Part shown: positions 46,809 through 48,559 of the stretch, one piece after another
How the letters are laid out: every line of letters begins with the position of its first letter
Position numbering within the stretch: the first letter of the stretch is position 1
Sequence record: PV730302.1
Strand: one strand, 5' to 3'
Source of the DNA: a phage
Length of the DNA: 64,000 nucleotides
Position numbers and translations under genes: made by a program
The notes under the pieces: generated by a model
What the model was told of the DNA's origin: nothing
Database searches by the model: none
The model's input: only the letters and a program-made list of their open reading frames with translations

Positions 46809-47174
46809 TTAGATATCGAATTCGTTCAGAACTACATCAAAGATTGCTTCCAGGTGTTCAGGTTTAGCTCGGTTGCTCAGGATGTGACGAATCCAAGTTT
46901 TAACCAGAAGCTTACGATTAACACCGTTCCAGCAAGGATGGGTACCTAAATCACGTTGACGGAAATCGTCATCTAAAGCGATTTTAAAAGTAGAACCTTC
47001 CATTGTGATTGAAACCGTAATACCATTTTCAAAGCGCATATAAACGTAGTTAGGAGTCATGCACTGTTCGATTTCGCACACGGTGCCGTTGTTGTGTTTC
47101 CACAGGCAAATAACTTCAGAAGAACCAGCGATACCGTTAGAAACATATTTACGTTCGAAGTTGATGTAGTTCAT
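46809..47174 (-). CDS. Hypothetical early protein
   Basis: 121 aa; GGAG RBS and GTTTAC-N16/17-TATTAT promoter (47212-47244) upstream. Confidence 0.55.
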   Translation of the reverse strand: MNYINFERKYVSNGIAGSSEVICLWKHNNGTVCEIEQCMTPNYVYMRFENGITVSITMEGSTFKIALDDDFRQRDLGTHPCWNGVNRKLLVKTWIRHILSNRAKPEHLEAIFDVVLNEFDI

Positions 47175-47211
47175 TTTATTCTCCAGTTTGTTTTCGTATT
47201 ATTTGGTACAG

Positions 47212-47244
47212 GTCTATAATAACACAACCTGTACCAAAGTAAAC
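47212..47244 (-). promoter_or_regulatory. T4 early-type promoter GTTTAC-N16/17-TATTAT
   Basis: Upstream of gene 46809..47174; part of repeated leader cassette. Confidence 0.5.
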
Positions 47245-47248
47245 TGTT

Positions 47249-47617
47249 TTATGCAACTTTAATCCAATTATCTAAATTTAATTCACCTTTAGCTTTCATT
47301 TTTTCAATCAACTCATCAGCAGTAGTGCGACCATTTTGATACCATGTAACATCTTCAGAATAACCAGTTTCTTCATCTTCATAAGTCTTACAACGAATCT
47401 TACCAAGAATCAAAGTTTTCAGTTCGTAGGTATCACCGGTAAAAAAGTTTGTTACTATAATTTTCCAAGAGAAGTCATCAGAAGGACCTTCCGGAGTCAT
47501 GCAACCTACAAATTCAAATTGTTCTTTGTACAAGTGCCATTGCATTTCTTTGGTTTCGATAGCTTTATAACCGTCGTGGTCTTTACCTTTGATGTATGAG
47601 TTAAGATTGATTTTCAT
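47249..47617 (-). CDS. Hypothetical early protein
   Basis: 122 aa; 5' leader identical to that of the 46809..47174 gene. Confidence 0.55.
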   Translation of the reverse strand: MKINLNSYIKGKDHDGYKAIETKEMQWHLYKEQFEFVGCMTPEGPSDDFSWKIIVTNFFTGDTYELKTLILGKIRCKTYEDEETGYSEDVTWYQNGRTTADELIEKMKAKGELNLDNWIKVA

Positions 47618-47654
47618 TTTATTCTCCAGTTTGTTTTCGTATTATTTGGTACAT

Positions 47655-47690
47655 GTCTATAGTATCATGCCTACCGGAGATGTACACCCT
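47655..47690 (-). promoter_or_regulatory. Early-type promoter variant (TGTACA / TACTAT)
   Basis: Second copy of the leader cassette upstream of gene 47249..47617; -35 diverged. Confidence 0.35.
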
Positions 47691-47704: not shown

Positions 47705-47735
47705 AGAAACAAAAATGGGACTCCGAAGAGTCCCA
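47705..47735 (-). terminator. Rho-independent terminator after small basic ORF
   Basis: GGGACTC-ttcg-GAGTCCC hairpin followed on minus strand by ATTTTTGTTT. Confidence 0.6.
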
Positions 47736-47739
47736 TAAC

Positions 47740-47901
47740 TTATGCCTGAGGCTTACCAAAGCAAGCAGCATCTGCACGCAATACTGCACGAGCACGAGCT
47801 TGAAGCTTATCAACTACCTGATTGATACGCTTGTTGGACGCACGCTTGTAACCAGCGCGTTTAGAGGTACCGTCAACTACTTTAACTTCTTTCTTAGCCA
47901 T
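47740..47901 (-). CDS. Hypothetical small highly basic protein (53 aa)
   Basis: Not in track; MAKKEVKVVDGTSKRAGYKRASNKRINQVVDKLQARARAVLRADAACFGKPQA; followed by terminator hairpin plus T-run. Confidence 0.5.
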   Translation of the reverse strand: MAKKEVKVVDGTSKRAGYKRASNKRINQVVDKLQARARAVLRADAACFGKPQA

Positions 47902-48109
47902 TTTTAAATCTCTTAAATTAGGATGCAGGACTTATTGGCGTTGCCTGCGCAAGCCCTCAAGGGGAACATAGGTTTCGGATATTTAACGACAGGATAACCA
48001 TAAACCTCGTCATCATACCAACCACGACTTAGACAGATAACCTTTTTCTGACGCGTGATAGTACAAAATACATTCAAGAGGTACACCGTAAAACTGTTGG
48101 GGTCTTAAA

Positions 48110-48138
48110 ACTATAATGATTCGCAAATCATTAATCAA
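48110..48138 (-). promoter_or_regulatory. Sigma70-like promoter TTGATT-N17-TATAGT with palindromic spacer (AATGATT-cgca-AATCATT)
   Basis: Minus strand; inverted repeat occupies the 17-nt spacer; lies downstream of rIII and about 200 nt upstream of the small basic ORF. Confidence 0.4.
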
Positions 48139-48164
48139 ACAGTTCGACGGCTCCTCGATTTAAC

Positions 48165-48413
48165 TTACTTCAGGGTAATAATAAAATGACGTACTGCTTT
48201 ACGAGCTGCTGAAGCCAAAGGCTTAGCAAATTTCAGTTCATCTTTAGCTTCCAGTTCAGCAGCCAGAGTAGCCTGAGCTGGGTTCAGATGTTTGAAATAA
48301 CGCAGGATTTCCAGTGCTTCGGCTTCAACATCAATAGATGCGCCGTAGTTTTCGTGACCGTTGTTCCAAGCGTTGCGTTGCAGTTCAAGAGCGTGATTCA
48401 GATGTTTGTTCAT
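48165..48413 (-). CDS. rIII: rIII lysis-inhibition accessory protein
   Basis: 82 aa, same length as T4 rIII; position between the 30.x cluster and gene 31. Confidence 0.8.
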   Translation of the reverse strand: MNKHLNHALELQRNAWNNGHENYGASIDVEAEALEILRYFKHLNPAQATLAAELEAKDELKFAKPLASAARKAVRHFIITLK

Positions 48414-48559
48414 TTTAAATTCTCAATTCGAGATAAAGATTGGTGGACACGTTCTTCTGAATTTCACTTCCTTTCGGCAAGTCTCTCAGTTGTAGTCCAC
48501 CGCTTAGGATTCTCCGGTTAACTAACTAGTCCGGCAGCCAATCCATATTATTATTTATA

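Follow-up and report, generated by a model that had tools for sequence, protein, structure and literature searches.

What is the purpose of the long gap that separates rIII from the gene after it in T4-like phages? In the stretch of DNA analyzed here (64,000 nucleotides (nt) of sequence record PV730302.1, hereafter the window, with positions counted from its first letter), this gap occupies positions 47902..48164 on the minus strand, 263 nt between the stop codon of rIII (48165) and the ATG (47901) of a 53-codon open reading frame (ORF) that is a homologue of T4 gene 30.9. An earlier note on this DNA had read the region as a self-contained minus-strand unit, in which a promoter gated by a palindrome precedes a long leader, the small ORF and a terminator. 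We suggest a different reading, in which the gap is an intercistronic leader, a mosaic of conserved and structured RNA modules, acting in cis in the post-transcriptional control of 30.9 on a transcript that reads through from rIII. We give this proposal a probability of about 0.6. At the level of sequence comparison, related phages show a sense-strand RNA fold that is maintained by selection, in a transcript beginning upstream of the putative promoter. These elements apparently constitute a new and seemingly undescribed family of structured leader RNAs in T-even phages, located upstream of a known gene.

Conserved modules between rIII and 30.9

The gap sequence matches 776 phage records. Of the 49 30.9-anchored loci, rIII was also found in 47; in all of these and in the window, the interval between the two genes measures 120-416 nt and is never short. 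Within it, a core of about 50 nt is conserved above both flanking coding sequences in several comparisons: the P1 hairpin and the linker that follows it are 90% identical to their T4 counterparts, as against 83% for rIII and 68% for 30.9, and they are 80-90% identical to those of more distant phages, where the flanking genes stand at 66-72%.

It might be supposed that what is conserved here is an unannotated small protein. The gap had been described as ORF-free and roughly 265 bp long; it is real, at 263 nt, but it does hold a 57-aa ORF opening with GTG (47913-48086) and a 41-aa ORF opening with TTG, and some depositors annotate a “hypothetical protein” here (e.g., the T2 coding sequence 736-942 in locus L005). 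The ATGATG just 5′ of the P1 stem, kept in most lineages, opens a further ORF of 19 codons (MMTRFMVILSLNIRNLCSP; 48016-47957, minus strand). We regard a protein product as extremely improbable, since three 1-nt insertions or deletions (indels) between the window and T4 break the frames of the 57-aa and 41-aa ORFs, the product of the former has no match in PHROG, and substitutions across the gap compensate helices instead of being synonymous. The frame-breaking indels and the lack of a family match led us to reject these two ORFs as genes. The 19-codon ORF, whose frame is not kept in T4 and whose ATGATG is replaced by ACTTGG in three loci (L032, L041, and L044), is probably not a leader peptide. 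We treat the gap as non-coding, every frame being broken by 1-nt indels that set T4 apart from the window.

We take the core as positions 47902-48018, from P1 through the ribosome-binding region. Its central element (47965..48016, minus strand; defined by alignment A3 and a covariance model) combines the P1 hairpin, a conserved single strand and a pseudoknot. The P1 stem pairs GACGAGG (48011-48005) with CCTGTC (47993-47988) around the conserved loop GUUNNNGGUUAUC; the conserved single strand CGUUAAAUAUCC follows, and the loop bases GGUU (47999-47996) pair with AACC (47974-47971), a strand just past the A-run, to form an H-type pseudoknot. Over alignment A3, P1 and the pseudoknot are paired in 83.3% of cases versus 68.1% in shuffles (0/500), with slid controls at 31-51% and a covariation score of 0.392 versus 0.154. 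One pair of the P1 stem is distributed as UA13/AU8/GC1 and the next as CG15/GC7, with no mismatches. The central pair of the pseudoknot (GC17/AU5) is likewise free of mismatches, its neighbor pairs switch among U-A, A-U and U.G (6:c3 = UA, AU, UG), and an anchored permutation test returned 10/5000.

Nearly every locus with rIII and a full-length 30.9 also has P1. At 47965-48016 the covariance model built from P1 and the linker gives 72 bits; elsewhere in the 64 kb it never exceeds 21 bits, and it finds no second copy of P1 of the kind that a regulon would call for. Pattern scans of IMG/VR confirmed P1 solely in T-even-type contigs, other pattern matches failing the covariance model, and placed it at the rIII-30.9 junction in all but two contigs. 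In these two (L100, at 1240-1585, and L101; IMG/VR 3300045988_074297, 2974717474), a rearranged or translocated copy of the leader lies between transfer RNA (tRNA) genes; it comprises module A (see below), P1, P2/P3 and the 30.9 ATG, and the final 27 codons of rIII are joined to it in frame.

The remainder of the core leads to the start codon. The region 47925..47964 (minus strand) contains P2, a short G+C hairpin (CCCCTTGAGGG; 47964-47954), a conserved CUUGCG, and P3, which pairs GCAGG (47948-47944) with CCTGC (47929-47925). P3 starts one base past CUUGCG or CUUGAG in 12 lineages, while its sequence and size vary, the stems being GCAGG/CCUGC, GGGAGC/GCUCCC, GAACUGG/CCAGUUC, GGUGGAG/CUCCAC, and GGCGA/UCGCC. 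RNAalifold proposed a GGGCUUG/UAAGUCC pairing for the T4-type subset; it shows no covariation and is absent from other lineages, and P2/P3 is preferred. In the ribosome-binding region (47902..47924, minus strand), an upstream pyrimidine stretch can pair with the Shine-Dalgarno-like AAGAG (47914-47910). In every lineage these bases are partly engaged in pairing: their mean unpaired probability is about 0.5 for the window/T4 type, and it is 0.2-0.3 for most others, which have anti-Shine-Dalgarno pairings such as UCUCC...GGAAGA and CCUC...GAGG.

Upstream of the core, module A (48078..48156, minus strand) is a long hairpin of four helices, supported by covariation, RNAalifold and the minimum-energy fold. 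Helix a1 pairs GAGG with CCTC (48156-48153 / 48081-48078), a2 pairs CCGT with ACGG (48150-48147 / 48089-48086), a3 pairs AACTGTT with AACAGTT (48144-48138 / 48098-48092), and a4, at the apex, is the palindrome TAATGATT-tgcg-AATCATTA (48126-48133 / 48114-48121), with 8-nt arms that are 100% complementary. A 13-nt inverted repeat (48086-48098 / 48138-48150), absent from the earlier note, encloses this palindrome. Over the 16 distinct sequences of alignment A2, 99.2% of cells are paired versus 95.1% in shuffles (0/500), seven pairs change on both sides, and slid controls are 25-61% paired. RNAalifold independently predicts the same helices, and when the window sequence is folded without constraints, the minimum-energy structure contains all 23 pairs. 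At one a3 pair (A2 columns 23:70), U.G is the commonest combination (9/16 sequences); as this would be A.C on the opposite strand, the fold belongs to the sense transcript.

Helix a1 also contains the sequence GGAG (48151-48154, minus strand), the target sequence of the RegB endoribonuclease, a few bases past the rIII stop. It is invariant in 16/16 module A sequences, and the longer spacer of T4 contains another GGAG, further upstream. The RIII protein has been reported to inhibit RegB activation (PMC9409239).

Module B (48019..48061, minus strand; alignment A7) is a nested hairpin, with an outer helix CTATCACG/CGTGGTTG (48061-48054 / 48026-48019) and an inner helix CAGA/TCTG (48050-48047 / 48037-48034). 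Its loop, AAAAGGUUA, resembles the P1 loop, and the loop together with the 3′ stem, GGUUAUCUGUC, resembles the P1 counterparts. Pairing is 92.6% versus 84.2% in shuffles (0/500) over the 9 sequences that alignment A7 provides, five pairs change on both sides (0/500 shuffles), and U.G is again the commonest combination at one position (A7 columns 8:44, 8/9 sequences). The suggestion that the long leader could be a structured RNA is thus upheld by covarying helices in modules A and B and in P1 with its pseudoknot, all above shuffled and slid controls.

Module B is optional: T4 does without it, and some relatives have in its place a module of 136 nt. This module (GCGGCAAGTGCATGC...GCAACAGATAAGAG) occurs in the rIII-30.9 region of 404 phage records, nearly always as one copy, for instance in L010 (945-1085), L006 and L016, in L019-L027 between P1 and P2, and in some Dhakaviruses exactly at the position that module B has in the window. 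It is more than 90% identical across phages of Escherichia, Klebsiella, Enterobacter and Yersinia. Its five covarying helices cross twice, which makes the fold a double pseudoknot, and it includes a hairpin with a GNRA cap; pairing is 97.9% versus 87.4% in shuffles, and 15 of its 29 pairs show compensatory change. It has no Rfam match, and its minimum-energy z of -0.64 is uninformative.

Side-by-side comparison of the intergenic regions reveals that modules are present, absent or reordered by lineage. The order is A, B and core in the window and T2; A and core in T4; B and core in some Mosigvirus phages and L008; core alone in Tequatrovirus sf22 and L009; A, 136-nt module and core in other Dhakaviruses and L010; and core, 136-nt module and P2/P3 in Klebsiella phages. 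Modules A, B and 136-nt hence have a patchy, cassette-like spread, with more than 90% identity across genera, and among the relatives compared the module boundaries coincide with indel breakpoints.

This mosaic invites two other explanations. According to the first, the leader would be an element of the DNA only, either a recombination or shuffling site resembling the PeSL (promoter-early stem-loop) cassettes of T4-like phages or a binding site in double-stranded DNA, and the RNA fold would be functionless. Gene shuffling at conserved terminator/promoter motifs does occur in T4-like genomes (PMC4122927), 30.9 is followed by a true PeSL, and the coincidence of module boundaries with indel breakpoints is what such a site would predict; yet only one strand tolerates G.U pairs, which at some positions outnumber every other pair, the pseudoknot pairing covaries, and P3 keeps its position and pairing while its sequence is replaced. 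Pure homologous-recombination sites need sequence identity and not compensatory change, and we hold this explanation to be very improbable.

According to the second, the modules would be independent non-coding RNAs or aptamers occupying a constantly transcribed slot, released by processing (for which A/U-rich single strands or the invariant GGAG could be the sites) and acting in trans as decoys, sponges or regulators of host or phage factors, and they would be swapped as cassettes among co-infecting T-even phages. That modules are separately present or absent, in varied orders, each with more than 90% identity across genera, is readily accommodated by this idea, as are the lack of a conserved distance between P1 and the AUG, the copy of the leader that moved into a tRNA cluster (L100/L101), and the five-helix double pseudoknot of the 136-nt module, which with 15/29 compensatory pairs is more elaborate than a translational operator needs to be. 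The individual modules, on the other hand, are not flanked by promoters or terminators of their own, and they have turned up only in one intergenic region, immediately 5′ of 30.9 or its start codon. Nor did targets emerge: the complement of the conserved linker is not above chance in the window, and E. coli genomes have no similarity to the gap sequence. We consider a trans-acting role possible, if rather unlikely.

We also looked for these elements among described RNAs. In Rfam 15, searched in a permissive E-value mode, the best matches of the window region reach 14-17 bits against gathering thresholds of 40-100, and the window region and ten related loci together gave only chance-level matches to microRNAs, small RNAs and the S15 leader. 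Literature searches, whose coverage did not extend to the T4 genome review or to Driukas & Nivinskas 2003 (Biologija, on rIII/30.9 expression), returned no description of the rIII-30.9 intergenic region or of the function of gp30.9.

The putative promoter and probable transcription from rIII

If the gap contained its own promoter, the leader would have to be read in another way. Under such an arrangement, transcription by the sigma-70 polymerase would start at about 48103, a repressor bound to the palindrome would gate it, and a leader of about 200 nt plus 30.9 would be the sole products. The hexamers TTGATT-17-TATAGT are indeed present (TTGATT 48138-48133, TATAGT 48115-48110, minus strand), with their 17-bp spacer and with the -10 ending 209 nt upstream of the 30.9 ATG, but they lie inside module A, and the quality that had been ascribed to this promoter does not survive scrutiny. 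A 9/12 match of this kind is no evidence of a promoter because it is at chance level, 10 such sites occurring in 3 kb versus 7.8 ± 3.0 in shuffles. The -35 begins with a T that belongs to the innermost pair of helix a3. This T/C position covaries with the base opposite it, 45 columns away (column 24:69 = CG 12, UA 1, UG 1), and T4 and most relatives (14/16 distinct sequences) accordingly read CTGATT. The -10 is more stable, with TATAGT or TATGTT retained in 16/16 distinct relatives, a point in favor of a promoter; its TAT overlaps the 3′ arm of a4, where only TA is paired.

Comparison with the promoter classes of T4 leads in the same direction. T4 early promoters have an A/T-rich UP element, a GTTTAC-type -35, TGn and TAtAAT (PMC2988021). 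The site in the gap lacks TGn, a GTTTAC-type -35 and an A/T-rich element upstream, where the sequence is G+C-rich (cgaggagccgtcgaactg), whereas every one of these features is present in a genuine early promoter 440 nt downstream. Neither a MotA box, (a/t)(a/t)(a/t)TGCTT(t/c)A centred at -30, nor the late promoter sequence TATAAATA occurs in 47902-48164, and Table 1 of PMC2988021 lists no T4 middle promoter between P30.2 and P31, an interval that includes the intergenic region. T4 does commonly have weak internal promoters, and the inverted repeat said to fill the spacer is there as a perfect palindrome, with arms of 8 rather than 7 nt. It does not, however, evolve as an operator: its arms vary by compensatory and G.U substitutions (AU->UG/UA, UA->CG), which is the pattern of an RNA helix.

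The position of the helices is decisive for the origin of the RNA. The 5′ strands of a1-a3 lie upstream of the putative start at about 48103, and the partners with which they covary lie downstream of it; because these strands precede any such start, the molecule under selection would be a transcript coming from rIII. Many phages, moreover, have the core leader without module A (among them L009, L008, and L041). We thus find a unit autonomous from rIII quite improbable, and the region is most likely the distal part of a 31/rIII-30.9 transcription unit and not a promoter-operator unit of its own.

That rIII, the leader and 30.9 are co-transcribed is the simplest reading of the locus as a whole. 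The structured leader begins directly after the rIII stop codon, and a terminator scan predicts none between rIII and 30.9. Helix a4 with its U-run was considered as a terminator of rIII and rejected; its stem has one G-C pair only and is not called by the scan. A T4-type late promoter, TATAAATA (48552..48559, minus strand; exact match and sequence context), lies directly after the gene 31 stop, 139 nt 5′ of the rIII ATG, and late transcripts that pass through rIII, the leader and 30.9 are likely to start from it. For T4 rIII itself, the part of PMC9409239 that cites the T4 genome review mentions early, middle and late promoters.

The spacer between gene 31 and rIII (48414-48559, minus strand) is also long, at 146 nt, with TATAAATA at its start and a GTGGAC...GTCCAC inverted repeat inside. 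In Gaprivervirus-type relatives this stretch is open and gene callers annotate an N-terminally extended rIII of 129 aa; in the window it is closed by a stop after 6 codons.

Gene 30.9 and its surroundings

The phage of the window is T4-like, of the genus Dhakavirus, and across this region it is 99% identical to Shigella phage PSD9, Bp7, IME281 and QL01. Its minus-strand gene order is cd, 31.2, 31.1, 31, rIII, the 263-nt gap, the 53-aa ORF, a hairpin terminator and the next genes; T4 has the same layout, with rIII, a 244-nt gap and gene 30.9. The upstream cistron (48165..48413, minus strand) encodes 82 aa with 88% identity to T4 RIII and is annotated as rIII in relatives.

The Lys/Arg-rich 53-aa ORF (47740..47901, minus strand; MAKKEVKVVDGTSKRAGYKR...) is present as the earlier note had it, with a predicted product of 5.8 kDa, a pI of 10.8, and 14 K+R against 4 D+E. 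It is not the untracked gene that it was taken for: phrog_1427 (function unknown) matches residues 1-53 with E 4.3e-27, identity to T4 gp30.9 is 64%, and synteny agrees, with 30.9 annotated in IME08, Bp7, VR5 and T4 and located after rIII in all of these and in PM2. The homology search proposed for the peptide accordingly found it conserved, with 41 cluster-level homologues in phages of Escherichia, Klebsiella, Edwardsiella, Pectobacterium, Yersinia and Serratia and 11 invariant residues (core S-x-R-A-x-Y-K-R-x-S-N ... A-R-x-V). Pfam, NCBIfam and PADLOC gave no match. AlphaFold2 (mean pLDDT 69) predicts a helix over residues 28-48 and an irregular, low-confidence Lys/Arg-rich N-terminal part; the sole PDB profile match, to SlmA over a 25-residue helix (E 0.18), was dismissed as chance. 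That gp30.9 binds nucleic acids is a reasonable guess from its composition. In several GenBank genomes (OR352943 AV113, OR525701 KMB38, MZ170040, PQ030847) and in one UniRef name, the 30.9 homologue is mislabelled as “1,4-alpha-glucan (glycogen) branching enzyme, GH-13-type,” an error that is spreading between records.

How closely are gene and leader tied? Where rIII-anchored loci have another gene after rIII, there is neither 30.9 nor P1. Two loci (L092 and L094, 1725-1869) have a divergent 44-aa homologue of 30.9 (MSARKGYKRKTNKRINQ...) only 9 nt past rIII, without a leader. In another (L076, 1763-2533), the P1 leader is kept while 30.9 is cut to its 16 N-terminal codons, fused to an ORF of 208 aa. 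Taken with the tRNA-cluster copies in L100/L101, these loci indicate that the leader travels with the 30.9 translation start, and that leader and gp30.9 are, as far as these loci tell, not strictly interdependent.

The strong hairpin and T-run terminator that had been placed after the ORF is real and conserved in relatives. It extends over 47706..47736 (minus strand; scan and inverted-repeat match), the hairpin being followed by UUUUUGUUU; the stem is a perfect 9 bp (47715-47723 / 47728-47736) with 5 G-C pairs and a UUCG loop (TTCG in the DNA), and TTTTTGTTT comes next. A hairpin with a U-run follows 30.9 in nearly every lineage, at -14 to -20 kcal/mol, and its stems differ by compensatory changes across genera (GGGACUC, GGGAGAC, GGGAACC, GGGGCUCC). 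Beyond it lies a T4-early-type promoter of the next gene (47659..47687, minus strand; GTGTAC, 17 bp, TGaTACTAT, from sequence), and GTTTAC-type -35 elements follow the terminator in relatives too. A terminator followed by an early promoter makes 30.9 the last cistron of its transcription unit. The pair forms a cassette of the PeSL type, a composite of terminator and promoter in T4-like phages (PMC4122927), and belongs to the context and not to the leader. A 55-nt repeat of promoter and 5′ untranslated region (47613-47667 and 47170-47224, minus strand; 94.5% identical) precedes two genes downstream of 30.9 (ORFs 47249-47617 and 46809-47174), and its copies look like duplicated PeSL-type early promoter and ribosome-binding cassettes.

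A possible role for the leader and its known counterparts

We posit the following course of events. RNA polymerase that starts at promoters further upstream, among them the late promoter at 48552-48559, would transcribe rIII, continue through the 263-nt leader and 30.9, and stop at the terminator (47715-47736). The leader RNA would fold into modules A and B, P1 with its pseudoknot, the single strand, P2 and P3, with the pyrimidine stretch partly masking the ribosome-binding site, and would set the level of gp30.9 in cis, through translation initiation, through mRNA processing and stability, or both. The P1 pseudoknot could be the recognition site for a factor, and a candidate factor is gp30.9 itself, a small, Arg/Lys-rich helical protein, in parallel to the leaders of T4 gene 32 and of ribosomal-protein genes.

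A number of observations weigh against this proposal. Read-through, processing and regulation are all steps that we infer, and the patchiness of the modules fits independent RNAs as well as it fits a leader. The distance from P1 to the AUG ranges from 77 to 353 nt, other modules being inserted between them, which is awkward for a simple steric operator, and in the window phage the Shine-Dalgarno sequence appears to be only weakly masked, with about half of it predicted to be occluded. The leaderless loci L092 and L094 indicate that the leader is dispensable for 30.9 expression as such, and L076 argues against obligatory autoregulation by gp30.9. As for the fold, the covariation tests use related sequences and structures derived from those same sequences, and the window-type pseudoknot, at only 4 bp, has weaker support for the window itself. 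RNA folding of the leader, one of the checks that had been suggested, gave a divided answer, as the unconstrained fold includes modules A and B and misses P1-P3, the proposed structure lies 2.4 kcal/mol above it, and the leader is not thermodynamically unusual (minimum-energy z = 0.29 versus shuffles). The thermodynamic signal is uninformative; the evidence for the fold is comparative, and as such we regard it as solid.

It is also conceivable that the rIII-30.9 slot is a cassette site for aptamers, riboswitch-like or decoy, that would sense or sequester a small molecule or a host factor and thereby tune gp30.9. The slot RNAs would be the P1 pseudoknot, A, B and, in more than 400 relatives, the 136-nt module, and the ligand might be, for instance, a nucleotide-derived signal arising during infection. 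We think this unlikely, but if it were true, the best-studied phage family would have an overlooked layer of RNA-based sensing or counter-defence.

Phage gene expression is studied with T4 and its relatives as the reference system, and yet this gap has stood in hundreds of phages without annotation or an Rfam family. Testable RNA models at the level of base pairs (A, B, the P1 pseudoknot, and the 136-nt module), tied to the conserved gene 30.9, can now replace a plausible-looking promoter/operator annotation. Should the modules act alone, they would be new phage non-coding RNAs; should they act as the cis-acting leader that we favor, they would control 30.9. Either way, annotators should drop the spurious ORFs in the gap, where records say “hypothetical protein” and even “glycogen branching enzyme.”

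Several known systems help to place the leader, the nearest in kind being the pseudoknot operator of the T4 gene 32 leader and the leaders of ribosomal-protein genes. PeSL cassettes (PMC2839356, PMC4122927) resemble it in that its modules mark indel boundaries; unlike them, the leader modules are not terminator/promoter composites, have no early-promoter consensus, occur once per genome, and show RNA covariation that includes a pseudoknot. The preQ1-I, SAM-II, fluoride and guanidine-III riboswitches share with the core a size of about 50 nt, an H-type pseudoknot, conserved loop and linker nucleotides, a location in the 5′ untranslated region and, downstream, a maskable Shine-Dalgarno sequence. 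They differ in that no covariance model matches and that the distance to the expression platform is variable here, and we do not claim membership.

In T4, rnaC and rnaD encode species 1 and 2, stable RNAs of unknown function from the tRNA cluster. Like the leader modules, they are non-coding RNAs of a T4-type phage, of comparable size and of unknown function, but they lie at another genomic location and have no sequence similarity to the modules (best E 0.16-0.19 over 12 nt). Ribosomal-protein leaders such as those of S15, L20 and S4 are structured, some of them pseudoknotted, and are bound by the small basic protein that they encode. Here too, a small, very basic protein is encoded just 3′ of a conserved leader that touches the ribosome-binding site; membership is not claimed, as gp30.9 has no ribosomal-protein homology and Rfam returned no leader match, only the S15 leader at one distant locus with E 0.87, below threshold.

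The operator of T4 gene 32 lies in a 5′ leader, where an H-type pseudoknot is followed by an A/U-rich single strand, and serves autogenous repression by gp32. The 53-aa basic helix of gp30.9 is unlike the OB-fold single-stranded-DNA-binding protein gp32, and the 30.9 leader has the extra elements A, B, P2 and P3. The likeness is thus one of kind only, with no claim to membership or sequence similarity, but it extends to several features: the phage family is the same, an H-type pseudoknot stands in a long leader well upstream of the start codon, an A/U-rich single strand including UUAAA follows it, and the product of the downstream gene looks nucleic-acid-binding. If the leader does control 30.9, it would represent a further post-transcriptional circuit of T4, of the kind known from the gene 32 leader.

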